A stretch of 61,684 nt of DNA, counting the filler. It is 5 parts of 5 records of this genome, joined end to end, with 100 filler letters (N's around TTAATTAATTAA, not from the genome) between each part and the next. Parts side by side here need not be neighbours in the genome. Positions count along the whole stretch, not along the records: positions 38,067 to 52,330 come from SRR20825010_6325; 4 more parts are not named here. One strand, given 5' to 3'. The number at the start of each line of letters is the position of its first letter. Positions within the stretch are counted from its first letter, which is position 1. Shown in pieces: positions 2,134-52,330 of the stretch. A program made the position numbers and the translations under genes. A model generated the notes under the pieces. The model did no database searches. It was not told where the DNA came from and saw nothing but the letters and a program-made list of their open reading frames with translations.

Positions 2134-3393
2134 ATGAAAAAGGAACTCATTTCACTGACTTTAATGGCTTTTTATGCCTTTGTTTCTCCTGCGCAATCTT
2201 CATTTTGTGGTGTAGAAAAGAACGACCAATGGGAAAATTCGGCGTTCAAAAGTAAGCTTCATTCTCTCTCGGATTCGCCGAAATCAACGTATAATGTACC
2301 TGTCGTTTTTCACTTAGTTCATCAGGGAGGTGCGGAAAATGTACCTGATTCTGTGGTGATTAATTGGATTTCTGAACTCAATGAGCGTTTTGCGAATAGT
2401 GGTTCGTTTCAAACTCCAGATGGTGTGGATGTAGATATTAATTTTTGCCTAGCTGAGAAGGATACGAATGGTTTGCCTACGACTGGAATCACGCGTGATT
2501 ACTCTGAGTTTTCACACATGTACTCTTATATAAATAGTAATGGTTTGTCTACTTCAACTGATCTTATGGATAGTATTTGTAGGTTGTATCATTGGAAAAC
2601 CAAGGATTATTTGAATGTTTATTTGGTGAAAAATCTGTTTGTCGCAGGCAGTGCTCGTACAGGTTGGGGATTTTTCCCAAACAGTAATGGGTATTATATG
2701 GACGGCGTTTTTCTGTATCACGCCTATATGAATAGTGCGGATACTTTTTTTTACTACCCAGGTTTGTTTGAGCACGAAGTAGGTCACTATCTAGGATTGT
2801 ATCATACTTTTCAGGGTGGCTGTTTAAACAACGATTGCACGGTTGATAATGATAATGTCTGTGATACACCCCCCGTCAGCTATCCGAATAATGATTGTCA
2901 AACGAGTAATTCGTGCCTTTCGGATGCCGATGATCAGTCGACAAATAATCCGTTCAGACCTGTTGCCCTCGGTGGTTTGGGAGATCAACCTGACGATCTT
3001 ACAAATTACATGGATTATACGAAGTGTGCGGATCATTTCACCTTGGGGCAGAAAAACAGAATGATCGCTGCTTTGACAACCATTAGGACTAGTTTACTTT
3101 CTTCTGATGGGTGCGGAATCACTTGGAATAGTATTTCAGAAAATGATGACGCATTTTTAAAATTTGCTTTATTTCCAAACCCATTTTTTGATCGAGTAAC
3201 TATTCCATTCGGGGATTTCAAGTCGTGCGAGTTTACATTGTATTCTATTACTGGGACGATCGTAAGTGTTGAAATGATTACTGAAGATCTTCCTGAGGTT
3301 GAGCTCACTGACGTATCTAGCGGTACATATTTTTACAGATTGAATTTTGATAATAACCGGAAAATTGTGATTGGAAAGTTGTCTAAGGAGTGA
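2134..3393 (+). CDS. M43 (pappalysin/ulilysin-like) zinc metalloprotease with T9SS C-terminal domain
   Basis: Contains VPVVFHLVH, the zinc motif HEVGHYLGLYH, the Met-turn NYMDY and a C-terminal FPNPF...GTYFYRL...GKLSKE sorting domain. Confidence 0.9.
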   Translation: MKKELISLTLMAFYAFVSPAQSSFCGVEKNDQWENSAFKSKLHSLSDSPKSTYNVPVVFHLVHQGGAENVPDSVVINWISELNERFANSGSFQTPDGVDVDINFCLAEKDTNGLPTTGITRDYSEFSHMYSYINSNGLSTSTDLMDSICRLYHWKTKDYLNVYLVKNLFVAGSARTGWGFFPNSNGYYMDGVFLYHAYMNSADTFFYYPGLFEHEVGHYLGLYHTFQGGCLNNDCTVDNDNVCDTPPVSYPNNDCQTSNSCLSDADDQSTNNPFRPVALGGLGDQPDDLTNYMDYTKCADHFTLGQKNRMIAALTTIRTSLLSSDGCGITWNSISENDDAFLKFALFPNPFFDRVTIPFGDFKSCEFTLYSITGTIVSVEMITEDLPEVELTDVSSGTYFYRLNFDNNRKIVIGKLSKE

Positions 3394-3648
3394 ATCGGTT
3401 GGGTTTGTTCGGAACATGCTTTTAAAATAGATGCTTTTTAGTAACCTTTAAATTGTTTGAGTTTTTTTGTGAGAAGTCTGTATCGTTTTTGGATTTTTTA
3501 ACCTGTAATTATGTGACCCTCATTTATTAAGTGTATTTTTTTCTAAGTGTTCTCATCAGATCGCAGATAATGAGTGGCATCGAAGCCCTTTGCTAACTCT
3601 CGGACATACCACTTTTCGGAGTAAAACTTAGCGCAGATTACTGTAATG

Positions 3649-4110
3649 TTAGTCTTGTTCGTAGAAACTTAACTCCGTATAAGACTCACTGTCAATCAAT
3701 TCATAAATGTTTTCTGGTTCAGTTGGATTAGCAATCCAGTTGCCATCTTTCTTAAGATAAAACCGAGCTCGATGAGGATACTTTACAATTATTTTTTCAA
3801 TGTCTCTGAATAGATTTTCTAGTTTCTTCCAGATCGCACCAGTCTCTCCGCAGCCATAGAACTTTTCAGAATTATCGTCAATATATGATATAAATCCGTG
3901 TGAACCAGAAATTGGTGTTCTTAAAGGCGCTAGTTCAGGTGATGGTACCGAACCACCGCTAGGATTGAAGCCAAACCCTAGTCCACAATTTTGACATTCA
4001 AACATTACAAAAGTCATTCCCTTTTTTACCGAGGAATTAATAAATTCTTGTTGCTTTTCATCTGGAATGAAATTCTTATCGCAATTTTGGCATTTAATCA
4101 TTTTATTCAT
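3649..4110 (-). CDS. hypothetical protein with Cys-pair (zinc-ribbon-like) motifs
   Basis: 153 aa; CQNC occurs twice in the N-terminal part, with a further CGETG. Confidence 0.7.
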   Translation of the reverse strand: MNKMIKCQNCDKNFIPDEKQQEFINSSVKKGMTFVMFECQNCGLGFGFNPSGGSVPSPELAPLRTPISGSHGFISYIDDNSEKFYGCGETGAIWKKLENLFRDIEKIIVKYPHRARFYLKKDGNWIANPTEPENIYELIDSESYTELSFYEQD

Positions 4111-4996: not shown

Positions 4997-5468
4997 ATTC
5001 ACATAGTTCAATTCCCCAATCAGTATGCCCTCTCCCATCCCAACACTTCCAATTCTTTTTTATAGAAACTACGGTCCATTTATTTTTCACTCTTTTCAAT
5101 TCCATAATATATTTTTCTCCTCTTTGAGAATCGTCTAGTAGATTATCATGAATTAGCGTTACTAATGTATTTCCGTTTTCACTATTTTTTTCGGTGATTT
5201 CTATTTTCTCATTTCCTTCACCTGAGTTTATCTCATTAGGATAATATAATTTAATCACATCTTGAGCAGATAAATCCTCATTTTTTCCTTTTAATAGCTG
5301 ATTTATTTCGTCAGGATTTATTGCTACAAACTTTTCATGCTCATAGGCCGTATTCGTTTGAATACTTTCATTTTCTTCAGATAATTGAACTTCAGTAGTC
5401 GTTTTATCAGCTCCCTGATTACATGAAAATAAGATGATCGTTAAAAGTAATCCAATGACTGTTTTCAT
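4995..5468 (-). CDS. hypothetical lipoprotein
   Basis: Lipobox ILFS-C; 157 aa. Confidence 0.75.
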   Translation of the reverse strand: MKTVIGLLLTIILFSCNQGADKTTTEVQLSEENESIQTNTAYEHEKFVAINPDEINQLLKGKNEDLSAQDVIKLYYPNEINSGEGNEKIEITEKNSENGNTLVTLIHDNLLDDSQRGEKYIMELKRVKNKWTVVSIKKNWKCWDGRGHTDWGIELCE

Positions 5469-38066: not shown

Positions 38067-38067
38067 A

Positions 38068-39369
38068 TGGGGCGAATGGAAAGGCTGGGAACGTGGAATT
38101 ACTCACGTTGACATGATTTCTCCTCGTGTAAAAACTTTAGAAGCTATGCAATTGGCATGGAGTCCTTCTACCAATGGAAAAGATGTAACTGGCGATGTAG
38201 TAACAATCCCTAATGTGGCTAACGAAGCTGAGTTCAAAACTTGGTTAAAAGGCATCAAAGGTAAGTTCGTAATGATTGATTTGGCACAGTTTACTGGTCG
38301 TCCTGATTATAACTGGGAGAAAAACGGCACTGAGCTTTCTATTGAAAACATGAAGAAAGACAGAGCTGAAGAATCAAGAGCTTGGTCACAAAGAATAAGA
38401 AACACAGGCTTAACGTCTCGTACCTTGCCTGCCGCTTTAGAAGAAGCTGGTGCAGCTGGTATTTTGATTTCTAACTGGTCAAGAGGTTTTGGTGCTAACA
38501 AAATTTTTGGTGCTGCTACGAAGACAATCCCTACTGTGGATATAGGGTTAGAAGATTACGGAACACTTTTCAGAATGGTTGAGCACGGTGATACTCCAAA
38601 AATCACTGTAAAAACTACAGGAAAAGATTTAGGCATGGTGCCAACTTTCAATACAGTAGCAGAAATTAAAGGTTCTGAATTACCTAACGAATATGTATTG
38701 CTTTCGGCACACTTCGATTCATGGGATGGTGGAACTGGAGCAACTGACAACGGAAGTGGTACATTAGTAATGATGGAAGCCATGAGAATTTTGAAGAAAA
38801 TTTACCCTAACCCAAAAAGAACAATCCTAGTAGGCCATTGGGGTAGCGAAGAGCAAGGTTTGAATGGTTCTAGTTCATTTGTTCAAGATCACCCAGAAAT
38901 CATCAAAGGGCTTCAAGCCTCTTTCAACCAAGATAACGGTACAGGTAGAGTTGTAAACATTAGCGGACAAGGTTTCCTACACGCATATGAATTCATCAAC
39001 AGATGGTTAGCTCCAGTACCTAGCGCCATTAGAAGAGAAATTAACACTACTTTCCCTGGTACTCCTAGTGGTGGTGGTTCTGATTACGCTTCTTTCTTAG
39101 CCGCTGGTGCCCCTGGATTTAGCTTAAGTTCTACTAGCTGGGATTATGGCTCTTACACTTGGCACACGAACAAGGATACTTATGACAAATTAGTATTCGA
39201 GGATATCAGAAACAATGCTATTCTTACTGCTATCATGACTTACATGGCTTCTGAAGATGCTGAGTTCTTCCCAAGAGATCAAAGTGTATTGCCTATGAAC
39301 CCAAGAAGCGGCCAGCCAATGACTTGGCCAACCCCAAGAAACCCAAATAGAAAAGGTGGAGGAGAGTAA
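38068..39369 (+). CDS. M28 family metallopeptidase, 5' truncated
   Basis: SAHFDSWD, GATDNGSG, SEEQGLNGS, SDYASF, WHT..DTYD; frame open from the contig start. Confidence 0.92.
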   Translation, partial: WGEWKGWERGITHVDMISPRVKTLEAMQLAWSPSTNGKDVTGDVVTIPNVANEAEFKTWLKGIKGKFVMIDLAQFTGRPDYNWEKNGTELSIENMKKDRAEESRAWSQRIRNTGLTSRTLPAALEEAGAAGILISNWSRGFGANKIFGAATKTIPTVDIGLEDYGTLFRMVEHGDTPKITVKTTGKDLGMVPTFNTVAEIKGSELPNEYVLLSAHFDSWDGGTGATDNGSGTLVMMEAMRILKKIYPNPKRTILVGHWGSEEQGLNGSSSFVQDHPEIIKGLQASFNQDNGTGRVVNISGQGFLHAYEFINRWLAPVPSAIRREINTTFPGTPSGGGSDYASFLAAGAPGFSLSSTSWDYGSYTWHTNKDTYDKLVFEDIRNNAILTAIMTYMASEDAEFFPRDQSVLPMNPRSGQPMTWPTPRNPNRKGGGE

Positions 39370-39392
39370 TTCTCAAATGGTTTACAAAATTG

Positions 39393-39421
39393 AAAGGCCT
39401 CGATATTTCGAGGCCTTTTTT
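39393..39421. terminator. bidirectional intrinsic terminator
   Basis: AAAGGCCTCGA-TATT-TCGAGGCCTTTTTT. Confidence 0.85.
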
Positions 39422-39839
39422 AGTATTTAGGCGGCTTGCGCATGTCCTTTTTTTCGGAATGGTTCTTTTTACTTGTGAGCCGCTTTTGAATAGCTCCCTT
39501 AGAAGGCTTGGTTTTTCTACGGGGTTTCGGTTTGGTAAAGGCCTGCTCTATCGCCTTTCTAAACTTAGCAATTACTTCGTCTTTGTTCCGCAGTTGGGTT
39601 CTATGCGCTTCGGAGCTGATCAGAATATCACCCTCATTCGTCAATTGCTTTTCCCATTTCTTAAGCAAAAGTTCTTTTTCTTCTTCGGAAAAAATATAGG
39701 AGCTTTCAACATTGAAACGCAAGGTCACTCGGGTTTCAAGCTTGTTGACATTCTGACCTCCTGGCCCAGAGCTGCGCGAAGTCTGAAATTGAATTTCAGG
39801 CAAAAAGTCTCGGGAAGCTATGGTTTTTGGGTCTTTCAC
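39420..39839 (-). CDS. arfB: alternative ribosome rescue peptidyl-tRNA hydrolase ArfB
   Basis: RSSGPGGQNVNK (GGQ), RTQLRNK, basic tail PKPRRKTKPS. Confidence 0.93.
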   Translation of the reverse strand: MKDPKTIASRDFLPEIQFQTSRSSGPGGQNVNKLETRVTLRFNVESSYIFSEEEKELLLKKWEKQLTNEGDILISSEAHRTQLRNKDEVIAKFRKAIEQAFTKPKPRRKTKPSKGAIQKRLTSKKNHSEKKDMRKPPKY

Positions 39840-39851
39840 TTTTGGTTAAAA

Positions 39852-40616
39852 CTAATCCCTTTTAAACAGCAAGTTACTTTCGTCAGAACCAGCTTCATCA
39901 AAGTAATAACCTTCGTAATCAAAGCCTTTTAATAGCTCTACTTCGTTGACTCGGTTTTTGATAATGTATTGCGCCATCAAGCCCCTCGCCTTTTTCGCAA
40001 AGAAGGAAATGATTTTGTACTGTCCATTTTTAAAGTCTTTGAATTCGACATTGATGACTTTCGCTTTTAAAGCAGGCCTATCTATCGCTTTGAAATACTC
40101 TTGCGAAGCCAAATTGATGAGTACTTTATCGCCTTGCTTTTTCAAATCACGATTCACCTGACTGGCAATGGTGTCCGCCCAATAATTGTACAAAGTAGTA
40201 TAATCGTCAAAGGCCAGACGAGTACCCATTTCTAAGCGATAAGCTTGAATCAGGTCCAAAGGCCTAAGCAATCCATAAAGGCCAGAAAGGATACGCAAAT
40301 GCTCTTGTGCGTAAAGGATGTCTTCGTTTGAAAGTTCTTCTGCTTCAAGGCCAATGTAAACATCACCTTTAAAGGCATAAACCGCCTGTTTGGCCGCTTT
40401 AGAGTCTTTAGACTTCCTAAACTTGTTGTAACGATCAACATTCAATTCGGCCAAGTTCTCACTGATGTCCATCAATTCTTGAATCTCTTCAGGAGTTTTC
40501 TCTTTCAATACACCAATCAACTCTAGCGTTTCCTTCTGAAAACGAGGATATGACTTTTCGGCATTGCAAGGGGTTTCGAAATCGAGGGTTTTGGCAGGAG
40601 AAAGTACGAATAACAT
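39852..40616 (-). CDS. yaaA: peroxide stress protein YaaA
   Basis: LSPAKTLD, ILSGLYGLLRPLD, NLASQEY, AKKARGLMA. Confidence 0.95.
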   Translation of the reverse strand: MLFVLSPAKTLDFETPCNAEKSYPRFQKETLELIGVLKEKTPEEIQELMDISENLAELNVDRYNKFRKSKDSKAAKQAVYAFKGDVYIGLEAEELSNEDILYAQEHLRILSGLYGLLRPLDLIQAYRLEMGTRLAFDDYTTLYNYWADTIASQVNRDLKKQGDKVLINLASQEYFKAIDRPALKAKVINVEFKDFKNGQYKIISFFAKKARGLMAQYIIKNRVNEVELLKGFDYEGYYFDEAGSDESNLLFKRD

Positions 40617-40723
40617 AATTGATCTTAAGCTTTACACAAACATACTAGTTGAGGGCTAGACTTGTTTGGGAAAAGTATTGAAAGTTTAAATAGTAAATAG
40701 ACAGCACAAACCAACTGGAAAAG

Positions 40724-40746
40724 AAAAAAGCCCTTTCGGGCTTTTT
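40724..40746 (-). terminator. intrinsic terminator
   Basis: AAAAAGCCC-TTTC-GGGCTTTTT downstream of the rhodanese gene. Confidence 0.8.
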
Positions 40747-40754
40747 ATTATTCA

Positions 40755-41141
40755 TTATTCCTGCATTTTCTTACCAGCGTTTTGCCAAGCGACAATGCCG
40801 CCTTGGAGTTCATAGATTTCTTTAAACCCCATCTCCTTCATCATTTCAAAAGCTTGTAGACTGCGTGCTCCTGAATGGCAGTACACTGCCACAGGTTTAT
40901 TTTTGTTCAATCCTTCTAACTGAGTTTTAAAATTTTGAGCGTTAAAATTCATTAATGTAGAGTTAGCAATAGCCCCTAGCACATACTCATCCGGGGTTCG
41001 AACGTCAATCACCTGTAAAGAAACATCATCAGCCATCAATGCTTCAAACTCATTAACATCTACTTGCTTCGCTACATTTTCAGCACAACCTAAAGTGAGA
41101 AATGCAATTCCTAAAATCAATAATAAGGTTCTTTTCATCAT
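40755..41141 (-). CDS. rhodanese-like lipoprotein
   Basis: IDVRTPDEY, YCHSGARS, LQGGIVAW; lipobox TLG-C. Confidence 0.9.
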   Translation of the reverse strand: MMKRTLLLILGIAFLTLGCAENVAKQVDVNEFEALMADDVSLQVIDVRTPDEYVLGAIANSTLMNFNAQNFKTQLEGLNKNKPVAVYCHSGARSLQAFEMMKEMGFKEIYELQGGIVAWQNAGKKMQE

Positions 41142-41839
41142 GTCAGTAAATTCCCATCATCGTCCCAAGTAGCAATATCCGTTCTTTTGGTTTGATCAAC
41201 ACATTTGGCCAGCCATTCTTCTTCGTAAGCCATGCCTTGTTGTTTCAATACATCTTCAGGAATACCATCCCAAACACCAGGCATATTCCCTTTATAGCCC
41301 AAGTCCTTCACTCCCATTTCAGAAGTAAAGTAGCCAGTCATGGTCAAGTTTCTCATGGTAGTGAAGAACCGTTCTCCGTGCTTGAGGCCAGGAGCCGTTT
41401 TGCCCGGATAAGCAATGCTATCACAAATGGCTTTATGTTGCTCGTCATTCAGCTTTTTGAACTCCATACCATACAATTTGTTGGAATGGGAATCTAACCA
41501 AGCCAAACCACCACGGAGAGGCAATTGGTTATTTGGCATATCCTTCGCTATAAACTCAATAAACTCAGGCACACCTGCATCAGTTGCCGACCCAAACTCA
41601 GCATTCGCTGGAAGAATGATATCGCACAACACTGCAATCGTCTCTAATTCATGTTCGTTGAAAAAGGTTTCTGAAAGCACCTTGGCATCATGCTCCTTTT
41701 CAGCTTCATTTCTACCATAGCCTGGAAGTTGCGGCTTTTCTGGAGCTACTACTGTATTTTCAGGCGCACAGCCCGTCACGAGCAATCCACCAGCTACAGA
41801 ACCGACCAATAAAGATTTTAATGATTCGCGTCTATCCAT
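41138..41839 (-). CDS. gluconate 2-dehydrogenase subunit 3 family protein (Tat)
   Basis: Tat motif MDRRESLK; LCDIILP...SATDAGVPEFI; GYFTSEMG. Confidence 0.88.
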   Translation of the reverse strand: MDRRESLKSLLVGSVAGGLLVTGCAPENTVVAPEKPQLPGYGRNEAEKEHDAKVLSETFFNEHELETIAVLCDIILPANAEFGSATDAGVPEFIEFIAKDMPNNQLPLRGGLAWLDSHSNKLYGMEFKKLNDEQHKAICDSIAYPGKTAPGLKHGERFFTTMRNLTMTGYFTSEMGVKDLGYKGNMPGVWDGIPEDVLKQQGMAYEEEWLAKCVDQTKRTDIATWDDDGNLLT

Positions 41840-41842
41840 GAC

Positions 41843-43564
41843 TTAAATATTTCTTTGTTTTACTTGTTCAATTAAATAATCTGAGGCTCTCCAAGCCAGG
41901 GCCAAAATGGTCCAGGTTGGATTTTTATCCGCTTGCGATACAAATGGACCTGCATCCATAATAAACACATTCGCACAATCGTGAAGTTGGTTGTATTTGT
42001 TGGTCACCGACTCTTTCTTGTCGTTACCCATTCTGGTAGTTCCCACTTCGTGAATAATTTCACCCGGAGCAGTCAATCCAAAGTTTCTGTCTTTACCCGG
42101 CTTATCGCCTAGCAGAATACCGCCTGTTGCGTCTAAAATTTGCTCAAAAGTATCCTGCATGTGCTCTGCTTGATTGATTTCATGCTCTGTCCATTGGTAA
42201 TTGAACTTCAACACTGGAATTCCCCATTCATCGACTACATTATCATCGATTTCGCAATAATTACCGCGCTGCGGAATACTCTCGCCACGACCTGAGACAC
42301 CTAATACAGCGCCATAGTATTTCTTCACATCCGCACGAAGTGAATCGCCATAACCACCTACATCGGTTCCCATTACTTTATTCAAATTATTTGGATTGAA
42401 ACCGAAGCCATAACTCGGCATTCCCATTCCACCCCAAACTTCAATATGGTAACCCCTTGGGAATTTGAGCTTCTTGTCGTTTAGCCACCAAGGTGTATAA
42501 ACATGCATTCCTCCTACTCCATCTTCATTATAAACCTTACGGTCCATCAGTTTTGGCAGGAATACAGAACGACTAGCACCAGTAGAATCGTGTAGGTATT
42601 TACCCACCAAGCCACTGCTGTTTCCTAATCCATCTTGGTGAACACTACTTTTTGAATTCAATAGAATTCGGGCCGAAGAACAGGCTGAAGCCGCCATTAC
42701 CACAACCTTAGCCCTAAGGTGATATTCCTTTCTATCTAGCTTGTTAATATAGTTTACACCTGTTGCTTTTCCTTCTTTGTCGGTCGTCACTTCGCGCACC
42801 ATACAATTGGTCATCAGCTCAATTTTACCACCATTCTTTTGGGCTGGGAAAATCAAGCAAGTTCCAGAAGAGAAGTCAGCATAGGCTGAGCAGGCACGGT
42901 TACACTGCCCACAATAGAAACAACTTCCTCTTTGGTTATTGATTCTTTTCGTCAAAATAGAAAGCCTTGAAGGAATTACAGGAATCCCTGCTTTTCTAGC
43001 TCCATTAATATAGTATAGTTCGTGAAGTCTTGGTTTTGGTGGGGGTAAGAAGAAACCATCTGGTTCGTTGTGGATATTTTCTTTACTGCCGAACACCCCA
43101 ATAAGTTTATCCACCTTATCATAATAAGGCTTCACATCTTCATAACCAATCGGCCAGTTGTCCCCTAGGCCATCAACGCTTTTACGTTTAAAGTCTAAAG
43201 GCCCAAAACGAAGCGAAATTCTTCCCCAGTGGTTGGTTCTACCTCCCAACATTCTTGAGCGGAACCAAGCAAAACGAGTCCCAGGTGCTTCAGTATACGG
43301 TTCGCCTTCCAGGTTCCAACCACCATAAGCGGCATCATAATCTCCAAAAGACCTTCTATCAGAGCTAGCGCCACGCCTAGGGGATTCCCAAGGCCAGCGC
43401 AATTGTGTTCTGTATTCGTCTTGTGCGGGGTCAAAAAATGGACCTGCTTCGAGTACTGCTACATCGAAACCTGCCTCTGATAGTATTTTAGTTGCCATTC
43501 CCCCACCGGCTCCTGAGCCGACAATGACAACATCATAAACTTTTGAGGATTCTATAACTTGCAT
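41843..43564 (-). CDS. GMC family oxidoreductase (probable glycoside 3-dehydrogenase catalytic subunit)
   Basis: GSGAGG FAD motif, LGGRTNHW, CFYCGQC..AC, HEVGTTRMG, NPTWTILALA. Confidence 0.9.
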   Translation of the reverse strand: MQVIESSKVYDVVIVGSGAGGGMATKILSEAGFDVAVLEAGPFFDPAQDEYRTQLRWPWESPRRGASSDRRSFGDYDAAYGGWNLEGEPYTEAPGTRFAWFRSRMLGGRTNHWGRISLRFGPLDFKRKSVDGLGDNWPIGYEDVKPYYDKVDKLIGVFGSKENIHNEPDGFFLPPPKPRLHELYYINGARKAGIPVIPSRLSILTKRINNQRGSCFYCGQCNRACSAYADFSSGTCLIFPAQKNGGKIELMTNCMVREVTTDKEGKATGVNYINKLDRKEYHLRAKVVVMAASACSSARILLNSKSSVHQDGLGNSSGLVGKYLHDSTGASRSVFLPKLMDRKVYNEDGVGGMHVYTPWWLNDKKLKFPRGYHIEVWGGMGMPSYGFGFNPNNLNKVMGTDVGGYGDSLRADVKKYYGAVLGVSGRGESIPQRGNYCEIDDNVVDEWGIPVLKFNYQWTEHEINQAEHMQDTFEQILDATGGILLGDKPGKDRNFGLTAPGEIIHEVGTTRMGNDKKESVTNKYNQLHDCANVFIMDAGPFVSQADKNPTWTILALAWRASDYLIEQVKQRNI

Positions 43565-43868
43565 ATGGTACAGTTGATTTGAGCTTAAAATTTAAGGAAT
43601 TCAACTGTAACGAAGGCCTTTCACCAAATAAGTTTTTATAAAAAGTTAATTTTTCAATCAACAAACCGATTACATTCAATTTTTTTAGATAAATCGACTT
43701 ATTCCAAAGTAACTTCAAAACCCAAACATTATAAAGGTGTTTATCATAATCGCCAAGTTTAACACTTGTCATCCTCTTAAAAAATGGCAAACTACTTTCA
43801 AAGCTTCAATTAAATTTTTCGTTGTCGGTAAACTTTAATATTTTCGATAAACATTTTGTACTCACTTC

Positions 43869-44744
43869 ATGAAAAAACGACTCCTCGTTTGTCTAGCCTT
43901 TGGCTTATCTACCCTGGTAGCCTATGCTCAAGCACCACCTCCCGACACAGAAATCTATGTCTTTAATCTTAACGAAGTAAGGGGTAACGTAACCATAGAG
44001 AAAGGTAAGAATGTAACAGCGCGAAAAGGCTACGATAATCAACCTTACTTCTATGGGAAAGATCAAATGTTATATACGTCCTATGACAATGGCCAAACAG
44101 ACATCATAATGTTAGACCTTTCAAATAATAAAAAGACGAACCTTACCAACTCAAAGGAAAGTGAATACTCAGCAGCGATGATACCTGGCTCTCAGTTATT
44201 TGCAGCAGTAAGGGTTGAAGATGATGGTGCCCAAAGACTTTGGAAATTTCAGTTAAATCCAAAAGAATCTCCACAACTCGTTTTTGAAAACATCGCTCCT
44301 GTGGGCTATCATGTATGGAGCGGTTCAAAGGTAGCCATGTTTATTCTGGGTACACCTGTTACCTTATTGACAGCCAACACAAAAAAGCCTGATGAGAAAA
44401 AAATCACCGATAATATTGGAAGAACGCTTAAATTGATACCCGAAACCTCAGATTTTGCCTTTGAAAGGACAGAAGAGAACGGTGACAAAAACATTTACCG
44501 GCTTAACTCAAATACTTCAAAGTATGAGTTAACAGTTAAAAAGCCTGAAAACTCAAGTGATTGGACGATAACCAAAGAGGGTACCTATGTAACCAGTTCA
44601 GGATCAAAAATACTGACATTCAGCTCTAAGTATAATAATGAGTGGAAAGAGATTATGGACTTGAGTTCTATGGGACTCTCAGGAATCACTCGGATGGCTA
44701 TAAATGAAAACAACACAAAAATTGCGATAGTCATTAACCAATAG
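43869..44744 (+). CDS. secreted TolB-like beta-propeller protein
   Basis: Signal peptide; GYDNQPYF, NLTNSKESEYS, PVGYHVW. Confidence 0.7.
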   Translation: MKKRLLVCLAFGLSTLVAYAQAPPPDTEIYVFNLNEVRGNVTIEKGKNVTARKGYDNQPYFYGKDQMLYTSYDNGQTDIIMLDLSNNKKTNLTNSKESEYSAAMIPGSQLFAAVRVEDDGAQRLWKFQLNPKESPQLVFENIAPVGYHVWSGSKVAMFILGTPVTLLTANTKKPDEKKITDNIGRTLKLIPETSDFAFERTEENGDKNIYRLNSNTSKYELTVKKPENSSDWTITKEGTYVTSSGSKILTFSSKYNNEWKEIMDLSSMGLSGITRMAINENNTKIAIVINQ

Positions 44745-44854
44745 AAGATTATCTGTTTTTAAATCAATTTTTTTTTCAGAGATTCAAGCGATAAATTGTA
44801 TTATTGTCTTTTGTTGAAACCGCTCTAAAATATTTGCATACCAAATCATTAACT

Positions 44855-45910
44855 ATGTTCAAAACTTATACTTTCCCAAGTGTCTTTGAAGGGAATAATA
44901 CTGACCTCAAAAACGTGTCTCCCGACCTGATCAATGGATTGAAAATTTTTCATAATGGTGAAGGTTATGTAATCGGAAATCTTGCCCTAACCGAAGGGGT
45001 TTCTCCGCATAAAAATATTAACAGTGCACCGGACGAATTGGATTACCAACTTCTTCTAAAAGCCGCATTACTCATTGCCAATCAAAAATTAGGAAACCCT
45101 ATTACAATTACCACAGGATTCCCTTTCTCAACTTTTCAATTGAATAAAGAAAAAGCCACTCAGTTAATTGACGGCCAACATACCGTTGAGTATGACGCAG
45201 CAACTTTCGGTGGTGGAATCAAGAAAAACATTCAAGTTGAAGTAGCTGGTGCTCAAGTGATTCCAGAGGTGATAGGTTGTACCATTGCTTTACGAAAAGG
45301 CGAAACCAAAGCCCAAGGAAACTTCTTTATGATGAGTTTGGGATATGGAACTCTTGAAGGATTATTGAGCACCGAAGGTGGGATTGTACAAAGAACATCA
45401 CTTTCAACTTACGGTCTTCGTTACGCAGTAAACTTGTTGGAAAAAGAACTATCAAAGGAACATTACTTAGAGTTGAAAACAGAACATCAGATTGATGCTG
45501 CGTTCCAAAAAGGAGTGATTTTCTTGAATAGAAAAAGAATTGATATCAGAAGTATGCGTGATAGAGTGCTAAAGCAATATTATGAAGATGTAATATCGCC
45601 AGCCATGCGAAAAGCCTTCAATGACAATGACTTTACAGCAAGTCAGATCATGTATTTAGCTGGGGGTGGCGCAATATATACCGCCCTTGTTGATTGCTTT
45701 AAGGAAGAATTCCGTGATGTATTAGATCTAGAAATTGCACACGAGCCACAATCATTGGCAAGCCGTGGATATTGTATTAACTCTGCCCAACTCAACGGAG
45801 GTGTAAAAAGTACAGCCGTAGGTTTGGATATTGGAAATGCAACCACCGTAGTCTCAATTTTTGAGGACAACAATACTGTGACTGAAACTTCAATTCCTTC
45901 TGAATATTAA
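44855..45910 (+). CDS. ParM/StbA-family actin-like ATPase, apparently circularly permuted
   Basis: FPSV, YVIG, TGFP, IPEVIG (connect 1), SLGYGTLE (phosphate 2), YLAGGGA (adenosine), EPQSLASRGY (connect 2). A phosphate-1-like AVGLDIGNATT lies at the C-terminus. Confidence 0.85.
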   Translation: MFKTYTFPSVFEGNNTDLKNVSPDLINGLKIFHNGEGYVIGNLALTEGVSPHKNINSAPDELDYQLLLKAALLIANQKLGNPITITTGFPFSTFQLNKEKATQLIDGQHTVEYDAATFGGGIKKNIQVEVAGAQVIPEVIGCTIALRKGETKAQGNFFMMSLGYGTLEGLLSTEGGIVQRTSLSTYGLRYAVNLLEKELSKEHYLELKTEHQIDAAFQKGVIFLNRKRIDIRSMRDRVLKQYYEDVISPAMRKAFNDNDFTASQIMYLAGGGAIYTALVDCFKEEFRDVLDLEIAHEPQSLASRGYCINSAQLNGGVKSTAVGLDIGNATTVVSIFEDNNTVTETSIPSEY

Positions 45911-45922
45911 TTAAGAACTCTA

Positions 45923-46375
45923 ATGGCTGTTATTACTCCATCCACACATATTACTCAAATTAAACAAGGCTCAATTATTACGGGCAATCTAAAATCGAGT
46001 CAGAGCATACGTGTGGATGGGAATATCACAGGGGATTTACTTTCTGATGAAAAAATCATCATCGGAATAAATGGAGAGATTGGAGGAAACCTAAGAGGTA
46101 TCGATATTACTGTTGAAGGTTTTGTCAATGGTGATGTAATGTGCAAAGGCTTGCTTCACATTACAAAAGGAGCTAAGATCTATGGTAAAATATATGCCTT
46201 AGAAATATCCATTGAAAAGGGAGCTGAACTGAACGGCAAGGTGAATGTCGGTAAGGATATAGAGATTCCAGAGCTCAACACTTCATCCCCTTCTCGATCT
46301 AGTCAGGAAAAGCCCAGAAATTCAGCTAGCCCGCAAGAAGAGAAAAACGGTAAATACGGCTCAGTAGCTTGGTAA
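45923..46375 (+). CDS. bactofilin (polymer-forming cytoskeletal protein)
   Basis: I.QGSIITGNL...IRVDG.ITG.L...IIIG..G.I.G...ITVEG.VNGDV...IEKGAELNG beta-helix pattern. Confidence 0.92.
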   Translation: MAVITPSTHITQIKQGSIITGNLKSSQSIRVDGNITGDLLSDEKIIIGINGEIGGNLRGIDITVEGFVNGDVMCKGLLHITKGAKIYGKIYALEISIEKGAELNGKVNVGKDIEIPELNTSSPSRSSQEKPRNSASPQEEKNGKYGSVAW

Positions 46376-46396
46376 GTGACCAACTGGTAATCTTAA

Positions 46397-47545
46397 TTAA
46401 TCACATTCTTCCGTTCCATCTACCAACTCGAATTGGTAGAACTCTACTTCGCTGTCAAATGCTTTTATAAAGGGTACTGTAATCAGTTCTTTGAAGCCTG
46501 CAATTGCATCGGATTGAATGAGCACAATACAACAACCGCCAAAGCCTCCCCCCATCATTCTTGCGCCTTTAATATAAGCCAAGCCCTGAGTTTGCTCTAT
46601 AATGAAGTCCAGCTCAGGACAACTCACTTCGAACTTTTGGCTCAACCCCACATGTGATGCCCAAATCAGTTGGCCTAATCCCTCTAAATCATTATTATCT
46701 AAACAAACTTCTGCTAGATTCACACGCTCATTTTCTTCAATCACGAATTCAGCACGCGCTTTCAATTTCTCAGAAAGTCCAGCCACTTTGATCATTTCAT
46801 GTTTTGCGTCCCGTAAGCTTTTAACTATTGGGTATTTACCTTGAACCAACCTTACTACACTTTCGCAGGCTTCCCTCCTTTGGTTATAAGCTGTTTCAGC
46901 CAAAGCATGTTTTACTTTCGTGTCGACCAAAAGCAACGTAAAATCATTGAGGTATAGGGAATGAAAAGTCTTTTCTCTACTTCGGCAATCAAACTTAAAT
47001 ACTTGCCCTGCCTGACCAAATAGGCTGGCCGTTTGGTCCATATTTCCGCACATAACTTGCGCAAAACGATGTTCAGTTTCTTGGGCAATATCTACCAATT
47101 CGTTTCTAGTAAAACCCGCTTCAAACATTTCATTCAAAGCATAAGCAAAGCAACATGTAATGGCGGCAGAAGACGAAAGCCCGGCCCCAACGGGAATGTC
47201 ACTAGTAAAAACGCAGTCAATTCCTTTTAACGGAACTCCCCTTTCACCAAACATCACTAATGCACCAATAAAGTAATTCTCCCAACTGGACTGCCCTTTG
47301 GGTTGAAGTTGGTTTAAATTCGTATTAAGCATTTCACACAAGTCAATGGCACTTACATTCAGGCTATCAGTCTCATTAAAAGCAACTGCCATTCGCGCAT
47401 AGCGATTAATCGCTGCTGGCATTACAAAACCATTATTATAATCGGTATGATCTCCAATCAGGTTAATTCTACCTGGTGATTTAAAGCACCTAGGCACTCC
47501 AGAAAATCGAGCTAAAAACTCCTTTTTTAAAGTATTCAAACTCAT
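46397..47545 (-). CDS. galK: galactokinase
   Basis: PGRINLIGDHTDYN, PVGAGLSSSAA, CGNMDQ, GARMMGGGFGGC; ATGA overlap with the upstream gene. Confidence 0.93.
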   Translation of the reverse strand: MSLNTLKKEFLARFSGVPRCFKSPGRINLIGDHTDYNNGFVMPAAINRYARMAVAFNETDSLNVSAIDLCEMLNTNLNQLQPKGQSSWENYFIGALVMFGERGVPLKGIDCVFTSDIPVGAGLSSSAAITCCFAYALNEMFEAGFTRNELVDIAQETEHRFAQVMCGNMDQTASLFGQAGQVFKFDCRSREKTFHSLYLNDFTLLLVDTKVKHALAETAYNQRREACESVVRLVQGKYPIVKSLRDAKHEMIKVAGLSEKLKARAEFVIEENERVNLAEVCLDNNDLEGLGQLIWASHVGLSQKFEVSCPELDFIIEQTQGLAYIKGARMMGGGFGGCCIVLIQSDAIAGFKELITVPFIKAFDSEVEFYQFELVDGTEECD

Positions 47546-49203
47546 TGAAACAGAATATAAAGCACAGTAAGGATGATACACAAGGCGATAGCACCTGCAT
47601 TAAAGCCAAGTGAGGTATTGAAATCGAAGTCCTTCATGTTCATGGCTTTCTTAGAGTCCACTCCTTTGCCCTCAGCCAATGAAACCACAACCATTAAGCC
47701 CAGGCAAATCAGAAAAACATAGCCCATTCTGTCCATAAATGGTACTTCTGATAAAAACTGTTTGAACAAGATGGAGAATAGGAATGTACTCACACCACCC
47801 ACCAATGCCGCTTTTGGCGTAGTTTTCTTCCAAAAAATCCCTAGAATAAAAATGGCCACAATACCAGGCGTTACAAAACCAGTGTATTCCTGAATGTATT
47901 GAAAAGCTTGGTCTAACTTCCCTAACATAGGTGCTACGATGATCGCCAAAACGAAGGCCACTAATGCGGTTAATCTACCCACATTGACGAGTCTCGTTTC
48001 CGAAGCTTTAGTGTTCATCAATGGCTTGTATATATCCATGGTGAAAATAGTGGCCGTACTATTGGCCATAGAAGCCAAAGAAGAAACAATGGCTGCTGTC
48101 AAGGCTGCAAAGGCAATTCCTCTAAATCCAGAAGGCAAAAACTGTAAAAGTACAGGATAGGCCTTGTCACTCTTAACTGTCATGGTAGCAGCATCCGTCA
48201 TTGACTTGGTTACGCTGTTATCGGGTAAGCCAGCAAGTACATCATTGGTCACACTCATAGAGGCCAAATCGGCAGCTCCTTCCTTCATCAATAAGTAATA
48301 GGCCGCAATTCCCGGAAGCACCACAATAAGCGGCATTAATAACTTTAAATATCCCGCAAACATAACGCCTTTCTGGGCTTCCTTCAACGATTTTGCTGCC
48401 AATGCTCTTTGTGTAATGTACTGGTTCAAACCCCAGTAGCTGATATTTGCAATCCACATTCCACCAATAATTACACCCCAGCCGGGCAGGTCTTCATAAA
48501 AGGAATGATCTTTACTCAATATCGAATCAAAGTGATTGGGTACCGCATCCATTAGCGTTTGGAAGCCTGCAATAGGCCCACTCCCCTCACTTACCGCATC
48601 TAAGGCCAAATAAGTGGTAGCCAAACCACCTGCAATCAGAAAGATCACTTGAATCACATCCGTCCAAGCTACAGCAGTTAGACCTCCGTAAATAGAGTAG
48701 ATCATGGCGAAGAGTGCCAAGCCAATAATAGCATAAATCCGTTCAACGCCCATCACGGTTTCTATGGCCAAAGAGCCTAAATATAGCACTGAAGTAAGAT
48801 TGACAAAAACATATACGCCAATCCAAAAAATGGCCATGGTGGTTTTTACATTGCTATTGTACCGTTGTTCCAGAAACTGGGGCATGGTATAAATCTGCTT
48901 CTTGATAAAAATTGGAAGCAAGAATTTACCTACCAGAATCAGCGTAATGGCCGCCATCCATTCGTAGGATGAAATGGCAATCCCCAAAGCAAAACCAGAA
49001 CCCGACATGCCGATAAACTGCTCTGCGGAAATATTGGAAGCAATCAGTGAAGCTCCTATCGCCCACCATGTTAATGACTTACCCGCTAAAAAATAATCTT
49101 CAGAGGTTTTTTCCTTTTTCTTGTTTCTGAAAGACAAAAAGAGCCCAACACCTATAATAGTAAGGCAGTAGATAATAAAAACAGCATAGTCTAAGATTGA
49201 CAT
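47542..49203 (-). CDS. sodium/sugar (galactose/glucose) symporter, SSS family
   Basis: YFLAGKSLTWWAIGASLIASNISAEQFIGMSG; vSGLT-like. Confidence 0.93.
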   Translation of the reverse strand: MSILDYAVFIIYCLTIIGVGLFLSFRNKKKEKTSEDYFLAGKSLTWWAIGASLIASNISAEQFIGMSGSGFALGIAISSYEWMAAITLILVGKFLLPIFIKKQIYTMPQFLEQRYNSNVKTTMAIFWIGVYVFVNLTSVLYLGSLAIETVMGVERIYAIIGLALFAMIYSIYGGLTAVAWTDVIQVIFLIAGGLATTYLALDAVSEGSGPIAGFQTLMDAVPNHFDSILSKDHSFYEDLPGWGVIIGGMWIANISYWGLNQYITQRALAAKSLKEAQKGVMFAGYLKLLMPLIVVLPGIAAYYLLMKEGAADLASMSVTNDVLAGLPDNSVTKSMTDAATMTVKSDKAYPVLLQFLPSGFRGIAFAALTAAIVSSLASMANSTATIFTMDIYKPLMNTKASETRLVNVGRLTALVAFVLAIIVAPMLGKLDQAFQYIQEYTGFVTPGIVAIFILGIFWKKTTPKAALVGGVSTFLFSILFKQFLSEVPFMDRMGYVFLICLGLMVVVSLAEGKGVDSKKAMNMKDFDFNTSLGFNAGAIALCIILTVLYILFQ

Positions 49204-49632
49204 AGTATCTTATATGGTTTTAGTTTTTAAGCCGCTAAAAGCTTGAAAGCACTGTGGTATTGGCAGTACTATAAAATTACAATATATACTTATTTTCTTG
49301 TTTGAGAGGAGACATTTCTAGGATTGGAAATCCGAATGCAATTTGATCATGTCCAGTCCATTAGGCTTTAAGCAAATTGACCTAGTAAGTCCACAAGTGT
49401 TTAGGGCAATTGTTTTTCTAGTTTTGGTGTACCAAACAGTTATCAACATAAGGCTTTCGGGTAAGAACGTAATTCTCATAAAAGGCATCTGGGAAATGAT
49501 TATTCTAGGCTACCGACTTGGAGGACTGAAAAATTATTTCCGCCAGAAAAAAACAAGCCAGACAAACCCATCACATTTGCTTTTAAAAAGCAAAAGAACT
49601 ACATTTTAATTGCAAATAAACATATAGAGCAG

Positions 49633-50550
49633 ATGGCTTACATTAGATTAACTATATTCTGTCTTGGAGTAGCAGCCTTCTTTATCTTCAAGTCATTCTT
49701 CGTTTCGGAAAAAGAGGAAGTAAAAGAAGATTTCTTAACGGAATTTAGTCAATCCAATTTTTGGGAGATAAAGACTGCGGGATTAGCCTCAGAAACACCT
49801 AAATGGATATTCGAAACGAGGTTTAACAATTATAAAGAGAACCTCCAGAGTCTTAAAGGAGCCACTTCAAATATATTAGTCATCTTAGCGCTAGGCATAT
49901 TGTTAATATTCTACAGACCTGATGGCATCCAAATATCATTCTTGAGTGTAAAGATACCTGAAGGGCTATTGTACCTAATAATAGTTTTTGGGTCATTTTA
50001 TACTTGGTCTAATTTTGGTTTAGAATTGAATTCTGCAATTCGGTCTAGACTGGCACTGCACGATAATCTTGAAACACTTATTAACAACCCAATACATAAC
50101 ATTGTTAATAGTGATAAAGATAGTATCTCGGCTGGCCAAAAACCCAGCGAGGCCTTGTTCGATCATGGAGTAGTTGACAATTGGGTAGTGCACTTCTTTC
50201 CAAATCATTTTAATGTGTCGGGAGATGAAAAAATAATGAAAGTATGGTCTTCAATTGGTCTTTACGGCCTTTATGGTCTAATGGCTGGATCGCTCTTCGC
50301 GTTGAGTTTTATTACATCCATTGAATTAGGGGATAGAAAAAAAAGATCAAAGTTTTACTCAAACGTTCTGTTGGTAATTTCCATCGGTGTCGTACTGACA
50401 CCTTGTTACTTCTGGGCTACATCTTTGCATACCTACAGTGCTGGCTATATTGGTTACATGTGGGTAATTGCTGCCATTTGGGTATACTTCTGGAATAAAA
50501 GTGGAAAGCACATTTCGGAAAAACTAAGAGAAATTCTTCAAACTGATTAA
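49633..50550 (+). CDS. hypothetical multi-pass membrane protein
   Basis: 305 aa with about six hydrophobic segments. Confidence 0.7.
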   Translation: MAYIRLTIFCLGVAAFFIFKSFFVSEKEEVKEDFLTEFSQSNFWEIKTAGLASETPKWIFETRFNNYKENLQSLKGATSNILVILALGILLIFYRPDGIQISFLSVKIPEGLLYLIIVFGSFYTWSNFGLELNSAIRSRLALHDNLETLINNPIHNIVNSDKDSISAGQKPSEALFDHGVVDNWVVHFFPNHFNVSGDEKIMKVWSSIGLYGLYGLMAGSLFALSFITSIELGDRKKRSKFYSNVLLVISIGVVLTPCYFWATSLHTYSAGYIGYMWVIAAIWVYFWNKSGKHISEKLREILQTD

Positions 50551-50843
50551 GCTGCAAAAACTAAAAATGTACTATTCTTATAAATGTAGACAACTCATTA
50601 AAACCCTGACGCAGCCTCTCTCACCTGTGTTCTGCCAGGTCTATGTATTTAAAAAAACGCTGTCCGTATTAGGATCACTCCACTAACCCACTGTCCCCCT
50701 CCTTCAAAATCTCCATTAACGAACTGAATCAACATTAACACAATCAGAGATGCACAATTTATTACTTGATCTCTTGTCTATTCAAGTTAATTTCATAAAT
50801 TAATGCAACTAAACGCACGTGCAGTCAGTATAAATATTAACCT

Positions 50844-51386
50844 ATGGATAAAAGAGAAGAACTAATTGGCATCGCTACGGCCCTATTTTCAGAAAGGGGA
50901 TTTGAAAACACCCCTCTATCGGTAGTCTGCGAAAAAGCCAATGTGTCCAAAGGTTTGATTTCACATCATTTCAAATCAAAGAATGGATTGCTCAGAGAAA
51001 TCTTTATAAAAACGACTGAACTCATCATTGAAATGAACCGGTTAGATCAATCCAATCAGACACCTAATGAGCAACTACGCACATTATTGGAATCATTCTT
51101 TTCACAACTAGAAAGCGATAAAATGCTTTTTCAGTTCAACCTCAATATGATGGTGCAACCAAATACCAGGACCATATTAAGCGATTTAATTAAAGATAGA
51201 TCTGATTTTATATTGAGGTCTGTACAAAGTATTTACAATCAAATCGATCCCCATACATCTTTGGTCATGAGTCATGCTTTTATAGCAGAAATGGATGGAA
51301 TAGCATTAAACTACTTAGGGGTTTATGATGATTTTCCTTTAAGAGAAATCAAAGACCACATTATTACAAAGTACACATCACAATGA
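50844..51386 (+). CDS. TetR/AcrR family regulator
   Basis: HTH ALFSERGFENT...ANVSKGLISHHFKSK. Confidence 0.92.
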   Translation: MDKREELIGIATALFSERGFENTPLSVVCEKANVSKGLISHHFKSKNGLLREIFIKTTELIIEMNRLDQSNQTPNEQLRTLLESFFSQLESDKMLFQFNLNMMVQPNTRTILSDLIKDRSDFILRSVQSIYNQIDPHTSLVMSHAFIAEMDGIALNYLGVYDDFPLREIKDHIITKYTSQ

Positions 51387-52165
51387 AGGTAATAAAAACG
51401 AATAGTACAGAAACAATCGACAGTTTAAGGTCGAAATTATATCAAAAGCTGACCGCGCCAATAGATGCCATGTGGGAGTTACTCTACATTGCTTCGTCCC
51501 AGCATTTCTTGATTGAAGATGAAGCAAAGAACATAGGCTACTGCTGTATTGACAATGGAGACAGCTTGTTACAGATATACCTGATAGATGAATATTCTCA
51601 TCAAATAGATAGGGTTATTACATCATTAATCGAATCAAGGCTCATCAGTTCCGCCAAGTTAAGCTCTAGTGCGCCTGTAGCTTTTAATACTTGCCTGTTT
51701 CATTCCAACTCAATCAAAACAAACACTATCTGCTATCAACACACCAATAGTATCATAAAGAATGTGGCTCCCTTGAATTTAGAATTGGCTACGGAAGAAG
51801 ATATTTCTGCTATCAAAGTATTCTTAAAAGAGCAGGTGGGAATGGACGACACATTTGGTTATACAGAAAACCTGGTTACCAGAAAGGAAATCTATTTCAT
51901 CAAAGAATCAGACATGATCATTGCCACAAGTGAATGTCGAATGAGTGATTCTCAACCTGAATTTGCCGATTTAGGAATTATCGTGAGTAAAAATCATCAA
52001 GGAAAAGGTATGGCAACAAAAGTGATGCGAATGCAAGTAAACAGAGTTTTAGAGATAGGAAGAAAACCTATTTGCTCTACTACACTAGACAATCTATCAT
52101 CGAGAAAAGCCATAGAGAAGGCCGGCTTCTATTGCACCAATGTCATTTTCGATATTAGTTTTTAG
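51383..52165 (+). CDS. GNAT family N-acetyltransferase
   Basis: DLGIIVSKNHQGKGMAT, N.SSRKAIEKAGF; ATGA overlap with tetR. Confidence 0.88.
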   Translation: MKVIKTNSTETIDSLRSKLYQKLTAPIDAMWELLYIASSQHFLIEDEAKNIGYCCIDNGDSLLQIYLIDEYSHQIDRVITSLIESRLISSAKLSSSAPVAFNTCLFHSNSIKTNTICYQHTNSIIKNVAPLNLELATEEDISAIKVFLKEQVGMDDTFGYTENLVTRKEIYFIKESDMIIATSECRMSDSQPEFADLGIIVSKNHQGKGMATKVMRMQVNRVLEIGRKPICSTTLDNLSSRKAIEKAGFYCTNVIFDISF

Positions 52166-52330
52166 AAATCAAAGATTTAACTACAGCACCATAGGTTTGA
52201 GGGAGAATGAAATTCTCTTGGTGCCAAAATCAAGATGATAGACAGTAGATTATACTATAGAAGTTAAATAGAAGTCATTTATCTACTATCTCGTGAATAT
52301 TTTTAGAAGCTAAAGCGAAATGCACTAAAG

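Follow-up and report, generated by a model that had tools for sequence, protein, structure and literature searches.

We identified a gene, at positions 44855–45910 of the DNA studied here, whose product is very probably a natural circular permutant of the ParM/Alp-type actin fold, with the phosphate-1 hairpin at the C-terminus of the chain. The stretch as a whole, referred to below as the window, is 61,684 nucleotides long with its filler and joins five parts of five records. The gene lies in the part taken from SRR20825010_6325 (positions 38,067 to 52,330). An initial annotation, made from the letters of the window, had read the protein as a naturally permuted bacterial actin, and this reading is supported by the homologs, by an offset in the predicted fold and by profile alignments in which the segments are reordered. 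The gene is followed by one for a bactofilin. The interpretation we favor, to which we assign a probability of roughly 0.8, is that the protein is a permuted, chromosomal, nucleotide-binding actin of the ParM/Alp type that is paired with the bactofilin and forms nucleotide-dependent filaments coupled to a bactofilin scaffold. For the coupling of filament to bactofilin taken by itself, we consider the odds to be about even.

Relocation of the phosphate-1 hairpin

The features of the actin gene are as follows. Counts out of 76 refer to a family alignment of 76 sequences with identities down to 50%.

44855–45910, plus strand: permuted ParM-like actin-fold gene, 351 amino acids and a stop; ATG at 44855, stop codon at 45908–45910
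44858–44878, plus strand: N-terminal strand, residues 2–8 (DSSP E2–8), includes FPS; S9 invariant in 76/76
45266–45268, plus strand: codon of Glu138, the catalytic Glu/Gln position (PE motif); Glu in 76/76 permuted members
45323–45352, plus strand: phosphate-2 strand and loop, residues 157–166 (FFMMSLGYGT), with Ser161 replacing the usual Asp, from the comparison of permuted and canonical residues
45662–45670, plus strand: GGG of the adenosine motif, residues 270–272; G270 and G271 invariant, G272 at least 90% conserved; Gly also in the canonical columns
45794–45814, plus strand: seven-residue linker NGGVKST, residues 314–320, between helix 298–313 and strand 321–326 of the model
45815–45862, plus strand: relocated phosphate-1 beta-hairpin, residues 321–336, AVGLDIGNATTVVSIF; strands 321–326 and 330–336, with invariant Gly, Asp and Asn
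45863–45907, plus strand: clade-specific C-terminal tail, residues 337–351, ending IPSEY; predicted local distance difference test (pLDDT) below 50 at residues 340–351; Roseivirga clade only

The translated reading frame begins MFKTYTFPSVF, so that the chain starts at the FPS strand. This strand (residues 2–8), equivalent to strand three of canonical actins, comes first here. It is followed by YVIG (residues 38–41), TGFP (86–89), IPEVIG (136–141), SLGYGTLE (161–168), YLAGGGA (267–273), EPQSLASRGY (297–306), the linker LNGGVKST (313–320), and then AVGLDIGNATTVVSI (321–335, nucleotides 45815–45859). All of the motifs in the initial annotation are thus present, in the order given there, in the 351-residue frame. 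Its placement of a phosphate-1 hairpin after LNGGVKST holds as well, at residues 321–336 (nucleotides 45815–45862). In line with its remark that no such motif is seen upstream, the 17 residues that would be added by an upstream in-frame TTG (44804) do not contain one. Phosphate 2, adenosine and connect regions follow one another as usual, and only the canonical rule of phosphate 1 first is broken. In every other actin-fold protein compared here, and in all those known to us, the chain opens with the hairpin. A weak Pfam match points to the same segment, with positions 1–26 of the FtsA model falling on residues 322–347 (E 0.047).

A search of 5.8 billion clustered proteins returned 643 matches, the best 120 of which were compared together with the query (121 sequences). 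These 120 homologs are mostly from Bacteroidota (Roseivirga, Cyclobacteriaceae, Sphingobacteriaceae, Flavobacteriales and Balneolales) and, where the source gives a name, are often called ParM/StbA family protein, as several are by NCBI. Clusters in the ESM Atlas are likewise of the ParM/StbA type and in Bacteroidota. A GxDxGN motif occurs near residue 322 in 120 of the 121 sequences and near the N-terminus in none, and therefore the arrangement is not a local truncation; the lone sequence that lacks the C-terminal motif is a 272-residue partial. In the family alignment, G323, D325, G327 and N328 are invariant (76/76), and T331 is conserved in at least 90% of the sequences. The invariance of the four residues argues that the hairpin pattern is not due to chance. 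The survey of homologs proposed in the initial annotation therefore comes out in favor of a conserved C-terminal motif, and the C-terminal phosphate-1 hairpin is a trait of the family rather than a local accident.

More distant members emerged when 1.84 billion representatives were searched exhaustively with phmmer, which gave 128 matches. Among the 39 of these that were inspected are permuted proteins of 20–40% identity carrying DxGN at the C-terminus, as well as canonical relatives (23–27% identity) that start with GxDxGyGxxK and have FPS about 20 residues later. Of 7131 candidates searched for longer proteins, one matched, and this is an actin whose tail is rich in E/K. Neither an actin–bactofilin fusion nor a tandem-duplicated intermediate was present among these 7131, which is weak evidence.

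Profile comparisons with the canonical relatives lead to the same conclusion. A canonical hidden Markov model (HMM) was built from 24 canonical relatives. When the 76 family members are searched with HMMER in native form, the median HMM start is position 24; when each is concatenated to itself the start moves to position 4, and 62 of 76 have a best domain that runs across the junction. Taken by itself, the C-terminal segment has its best alignment at the first 10 HMM positions in 72 of 76 members, vs. 17 of 760 shuffles. With hhalign, which matches the family to its canonical relatives at a probability of 99.9–100 over about 300 columns (native E 1.5e-36), the native order covers 293 columns and template positions 23–328 with a score of 254.9, and residues 320–335 form a separate match to template positions 3–18. 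The reordered profile gives a single alignment of 313 columns that extends over template positions 3–328 and scores 273.0, the gain in coverage that had been predicted for the reordered form. For a doubled profile the best match is 320–648, across the junction between the C- and N-termini.

The predicted structure agrees with a ParM-type actin fold. An AlphaFold2 model based on the 76-sequence alignment has a mean pLDDT of 88 and a predicted template modelling score (pTM) of 0.89. Its first strand spans residues 2–8, its last helix residues 298–313, and the hairpin is formed by strands 321–326 and 330–336 (block pLDDT 93 and 83), while residues 340–351 are disordered with pLDDT below 50. At least 500 Foldseek matches have E-values of 0.001 or less, with ParM-type actins on top; the best are pCBH ParM, Ta0583, Dh-cParM1, CorM, pSK41 ParM, Alp12 and Alp7A (E 1e-14 to 1e-11). 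VIA-align superimposes the model on 8x1i with Z 26.6 and a root-mean-square deviation of 2.9 over 296 residues, and Z values of 20–26.6 to ParM, MreB, MamK, actin and DnaK place it within the two-domain ASKHA fold. In all 50 of the 50 VIA entries shown, residue 1 or 2 of the model corresponds to residue 16–61 of the solved chain (about 19–24 in ParM, Ta0583, MreB and actin), and the alignment ends at model residue 311–320, leaving the C-terminal hairpin unaligned. Therefore, the solved actins hold an N-terminal piece that is missing here, and a piece of similar size at the C-terminus cannot be placed sequentially. The structural check that had been suggested for the permuted reading thus yields a ParM-type fold with some 20 extra N-terminal residues in every solved chain shown.

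A profile search against sequences in the PDB gives a weak match of the same kind, in which profile positions 318–338 correspond to Hsc70 residues 3–23, 128–183 to 165–222, and 251–316 to 317–383. In this search the best true sequence match is Dh-cParM1 (8x1i, E 0.0026); the top match, eukaryotic ribosomal protein eL6 (11he_L6, E 0.0013, residues 10–64, LALxEGVSPHK), is probably due to chance. In a covariation analysis between the hairpin and the rest of the protein, based on 184 sequences (effective number about 52), hub columns 340, 151 and 312 dominate the ranking. Pairs 3–337, 5–319 and 5–335 rank 23, 26 and 71 of 55945, to which we attach no evidential weight.

Nucleotide site, relatives and origin

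The permuted family keeps the GGG adenosine motif and the phosphate-1 Asp, and differs from canonical relatives at several other positions of the nucleotide site. At position 161 (phosphate 2) the residue is Ser in 76/76 permuted proteins and in 10 of 11 distant permuted proteins, vs. Asp in 22 and Asn in two of the 24 canonical sequences. The replacement of the phosphate-2 Asp by Ser, which had been noticed in the single protein of the window, is therefore correct and family-wide, and it goes together with the permutation. The catalytic position 138 is Glu in 76/76 permuted and 9 of 11 distant permuted proteins, and Gln in 23 of 24 canonical ones. Position 12, after FPS, is Glu throughout the permuted family (76/76), Ala (seven) or Glu (two) in the 11 distant permuted proteins, and Gly in 17 of 24 canonical relatives; position 168 is Glu in 76/76 and 11/11, and Asp in 19 of 24, respectively. 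Judged by these residues, the site looks like one that has been rebuilt and is still under selection. The combined change from Asp to Ser at phosphate 2 and from Gln to Glu at the catalytic position predicts an altered hydrolysis chemistry.

Homology to the ParM/StbA–Alp core is evident from the canonical HMM, which scores 146 bits on the query, and from the hhalign probability of 99.9; many close homologs bear precomputed PF17989 and/or PF21522 labels. We considered and rejected assignment to MreB (PF06723), since MreB_Mbl has no match to the query at E≤1, and to FcmB (NCBIfam NF052678), since the query scores 20.4 bits over residues 28–153 against an equivalog threshold of at least 300 bits. 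A ParMRC cassette was also rejected, as the downstream gene encodes a bactofilin and not ParR, and an iteron array is absent from 44700–44900.

The nearest sequence relatives outside the permuted clade are canonical proteins combining ALP_N and MreB-like_C (e.g., P0224 and P0244; 23–27% identity), which match the full ALP_N profile from position 1; their phosphate-2 and catalytic residues are Asp and Gln, respectively. Among solved structures, pCBH ParM of Clostridium botulinum (6ixw, 6izr; Foldseek E 1.3e-14) and the archaeal actin Ta0583 (2fsj, 2fsk, 2fsn; E 2.3e-14) belong to the same ParM/Alp branch. Both have VIA Z values of 24–25.6 at 15–18% identity to the query, but their phosphate-1 hairpin is N-terminal and residue 1 of the query model corresponds to their residue 19–21. 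The best structural match, Dh-cParM1 of Desulfitobacterium hafniense (8x1i), is like the query a ParM-type actin encoded on the chromosome. However, it has the canonical order, with chain residues 1–22 preceding the counterpart of query residue 1. Its partner is a ParR-type adaptor and not a bactofilin, according to the paper on chromosomal ParM (PMC12270681), in which the terms "permut", "Bacteroid" and "bactofilin" do not occur.

The closest functional analogy is CorMR, an actin with a tailed partner. CorM of Anabaena (9rmi) matches the query in fold (Z 24.3) but, unlike it, is in canonical order. As described in the CorMR report, this is a chromosomal ParM relative repurposed as a cytoskeleton, and the C-terminal peptide of CorR is needed for binding CorM while a second element tethers the filament. 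The partner there is not a bactofilin, since CorR is homologous to ParR and has an amphipathic helix, and the same three terms are unmentioned (bioRxiv 10.1101/2025.06.27.661541). In agreement with the initial annotation, which knew of no such family, our search of the full-text literature, whose coverage does not extend to subscription journals and supplements, turned up no account of either a permuted bacterial actin or a ParM–bactofilin module.

A quick maximum-likelihood tree of 73 sequences (49 permuted and 24 canonical; midpoint root, several long branches) has one branch, with a Shimodaira–Hasegawa-like approximate likelihood ratio test (SH-aLRT) support of 98, that splits the permuted from the canonical proteins, and a single change of state suffices. 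Seven distant permuted proteins form a clade that is sister to the Bacteroidota-type clade. Of 401 Bacteroidota genomes sampled, 21 contain the permuted family, mostly as a single copy. Three genomes (G257, G361 and G396) have two permuted-actin matches each, the second in G396 being partial.

In the Roseivirga clade the tail (residues 337–351) ends in T-x-[ST]-I-P-[SA]-[ED]-Y, which resembles the N-terminal TYTFPSVF strand. This motif lies 23 residues past the hairpin Gly, where the canonical spacing is about 20. It could be a relic of an origin by duplication and truncation, or a motif particular to this clade.

The bactofilin partner and terminal tryptophans

Downstream of the actin gene we found the following features.

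45911–45922: spacer between the actin and bactofilin genes, 12 nucleotides
45923–46375, plus strand: bactofilin gene, the conserved partner, 150 amino acids and a stop; Pfam PF04519, E 3.1e-21
46355–46372, plus strand: C-terminal YGSVAW motif of the bactofilin, after a variable linker; W150 at least 90% conserved in 35 linked bactofilins

The bactofilin matches profile positions 2–97 of 98 of PF04519 with 75.9 bits, against a cut-off of 27.9. In a scan of species-representative genomes, the 293 pattern matches included 265 relatives of the actin, and 80 loci were retained. A bactofilin gene lies directly downstream in 67 of the 80 by tblastn, in 71 by HMM, and in 72 by either method (L056 being added by tblastn). 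Seven divergent downstream neighbors were all confirmed as bactofilins by Pfam (E 3e-17 to 1e-23). The eight loci outside this count consist of two whose sequence ends too near the gene (L028 and L063), five with long-form actins, and one (L077) with a short actin ending FGWE. The gap between the two genes, 12 nucleotides in the window, is mostly –1 to +28 nucleotides across the loci. No terminator-like site was found between them in our scan, and we infer that they are co-transcribed. The scans as a whole returned counts at the level of chance, with seven promoters against 6.5 expected, by models that do not include Bacteroidota promoters, and one terminator against 1.4 expected.

Other neighbors are far less constant. 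The upstream gene is kept in 32 of the 80 loci, and in the Roseivirga clade only, and the genes labelled by eye as galK-like and GMC-oxidoreductase-like are conserved in four and seven of the 80, respectively; the conserved unit is therefore the actin–bactofilin pair. The upstream gene (43869–44744, plus strand) encodes a 291-residue protein with an N-terminal signal-like segment and no Pfam match, and it probably lies outside the module. L030 (Roseivirga echinicomitans) and L064 encode an actin protein 100% identical to that of the window, with neighboring genes that are only 82–97% identical; the window thus derives from a close relative, which need not be that strain.

Whole-genome gene content was taken from the close relative behind L030. 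Alongside a true MreB (418.7 bits), this genome has a single permuted actin and a pair of bactofilins. The permuted actin is an additional actin, not a replacement for MreB. About 19 kb separate mreB from the second bactofilin, which is upstream of it and distinct from the one linked to the actin (G001:C1:721853-722143, G001:C1:740939-741922). A structure prediction for a complex of the actin and the bactofilin gave a score of 0.00 in a run without family alignments or controls, a value that bears neither way on binding.

The sister branch has a different layout. Scanning metagenomes with an alignment of the distant permuted proteins gave six sister-branch loci, five of them with downstream DNA. 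A bactofilin is found at none of the six. Instead, an open reading frame (ORF) of 106–116 codons directly follows the actin in four of the five (L081:1096-1425, L083:1308-1655, L084:1077-1394 and L085:4161-4499; mutual identity 22–35%), and one of these loci, L084, also carries a resolvase gene (3356–3997, minus strand). By position, the arrangement resembles a ParM–ParR cassette, which would make the permutation older than the bactofilin, with the bactofilin replacing an adaptor.

The common plan of the linked bactofilins is a beta-helix core and a variable linker, with a Trp at the end. A Trp falls within the last three residues of 69 of 71 linked bactofilins vs. seven of 280 other ORFs of the same loci. 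The five long-form permuted actins, which have no bactofilin (L068, L070, L073, L074 and L076; 428–432 residues; ORF start at 5001, or 1192 in L073), all end KFL(K/I)TG(M/T)W after a disordered tail of about 80 residues. Across 19 long forms R418, F422, L423, G426 and W428 are invariant. A Trp-ended tail can thus be borne by either partner, and that of the long-form actins appears to substitute for the Trp-ended bactofilin. The predicted long-form structure has a mean pLDDT of 61.6, with residues 340–416 disordered and a low-confidence terminal helix at 418–425. The long-form tails are basic, with an amphipathicity that is not significant (reached by 86–290 of 1000 shuffles), and those of the actin-linked bactofilins are mostly acidic and not amphipathic. 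Tails are thus also attached at the new C-terminus, just past the hairpin. A third tail form occurs in P0126 (535 residues) and P0261 (665 residues), in which the permuted actin is followed by 200–300 residues of E/K-rich low-complexity sequence ending DDYEPDFS.

Competing explanations and implications

In the interpretation that we favor, the first two strands of a canonical actin, which form the phosphate-1 hairpin, would have been lost from the N-terminus and re-attached after the last helix through a seven-residue linker. The relocated hairpin would fold back in cis and complete a working nucleotide site, and the protein would form nucleotide-dependent filaments. These filaments may be coupled to a bactofilin scaffold, with the disordered linker and Trp-ended tail of the bactofilin acting as a tether. 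The tail could dock on the actin, in the manner of the ParR and CorR C-terminal peptides; alternatively, it could attach to the membrane or to a third partner.

Several points weigh against this interpretation. We infer that filaments form, that they are coupled to bactofilin, and that the hairpin occupies the pocket of its own chain, in cis and not in trans. Loss of the phosphate-2 Asp could mean that hydrolysis is weak or does not occur. For the query itself, the domain that crosses the junction scores 145.7 bits and the native one 146.1, so that the gain is in coverage alone, and the isolated C-terminal segments score low singly (median 2.45 bits, a value reached by five of 760 shuffles). 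The Pfam scan of the query gives MreB-like_C (PF21522) at residues 183–274 with 27.3 bits, under the cut-off of 27.8, and no match to ALP_N (PF17989) at E≤1. On the tree the permutation has a single origin, with an outgroup made up of the 24 relatives from our own search and a quick midpoint rooting. Finally, the small ORFs of the sister branch belong to no Pfam family, and their likeness to ParR is one of position and size only.

An artefact of one assembly, such as a truncated N-terminus, a frameshift or the fused remnant of a tandem second actin, might be suspected from the unusual order of motifs alone. This has next to no chance of being correct, given the same architecture in 120 of 121 homologs from many independent assemblies and at 80 genome loci, a next gene that begins 12 nucleotides downstream and encodes a bactofilin, and 17 upstream codons without a phosphate-1 motif. 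If the permutation is genuine, the hairpin might still act in trans, inserting into the neighboring subunit so that completion of the site is itself the polymerization event. Such a strand-swapped assembly is geometrically eased by the permuted topology and by a Gly-rich, flexible linker that holds the hairpin at the chain end. However, the monomer model is confidently closed and globular (pTM 0.89; hairpin blocks at pLDDT 93 and 83), the linker has just seven residues, and both chain ends of an actin fold belong to one subdomain, which makes closure in cis simplest; we regard the swap as very doubtful. A related idea is that the permutation is functional rather than neutral, the tethered hairpin being a latch on the nucleotide site that is completed in trans or gated by the bactofilin or the tails. 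We consider this quite unlikely.

The protein may not form filaments at all and may instead be an ATPase or pseudo-ATPase with the actin fold whose role is to regulate the bactofilin polymer or to cap it, in the manner of FtsA or as an Hsp70-like adaptor. The substitution of Ser for the phosphate-2 Asp in 76/76 members would fit this role, as would a partner that itself forms polymers. Yet the nearest folds are all filament-forming ParM-type actins, the invariance of Glu138, Asp325 and the adenosine GGG speaks for a functional nucleotide site, and the sister branch retains a ParMR-like two-gene layout, so that we judge this role unlikely. Descent from ParM/Alp relatives, the small ORF in the ParR position in the sister branch and the resolvase at one of its loci could be taken to indicate DNA segregation, with a ParM-type motor moving a chromosome region or an integrated element and the bactofilin as an unconventional adaptor. 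The gene is chromosomal, however, with flanks that vary between clades (the upstream neighbor being kept in 32 of 80 loci), and the family occurs mostly as one copy in 21 of the 401 sampled genomes. In the window there is no ParR-like ORF, and upstream of the gene there are no iteron-like repeats, the single direct repeat being one two-copy match of eight nucleotides. Moreover, DNA binding is not known for bactofilins. We therefore give segregation only a slim chance and retain the cis-closed, filament-forming actin coupled to bactofilin as our preferred interpretation.

The cytoskeleton of Bacteroidota is little studied. Strict pairing with a bactofilin, in the slot that a small gene of adaptor size occupies in relatives, points to an undescribed two-polymer system in this phylum. 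If the hairpin did serve as a latch, this would be a composite actin–bactofilin cytoskeleton with an assembly principle unseen in described actins. The exchange of the Trp-ended tail between bactofilin and actin offers a direct handle for genetics and biochemistry. As a natural and conserved permutant that, from its sequence, is apparently functional, the protein suggests that the actin fold tolerates rewiring at its catalytic center, and it would provide a natural test system for the coupling between polymerization and the two halves of the nucleotide site.

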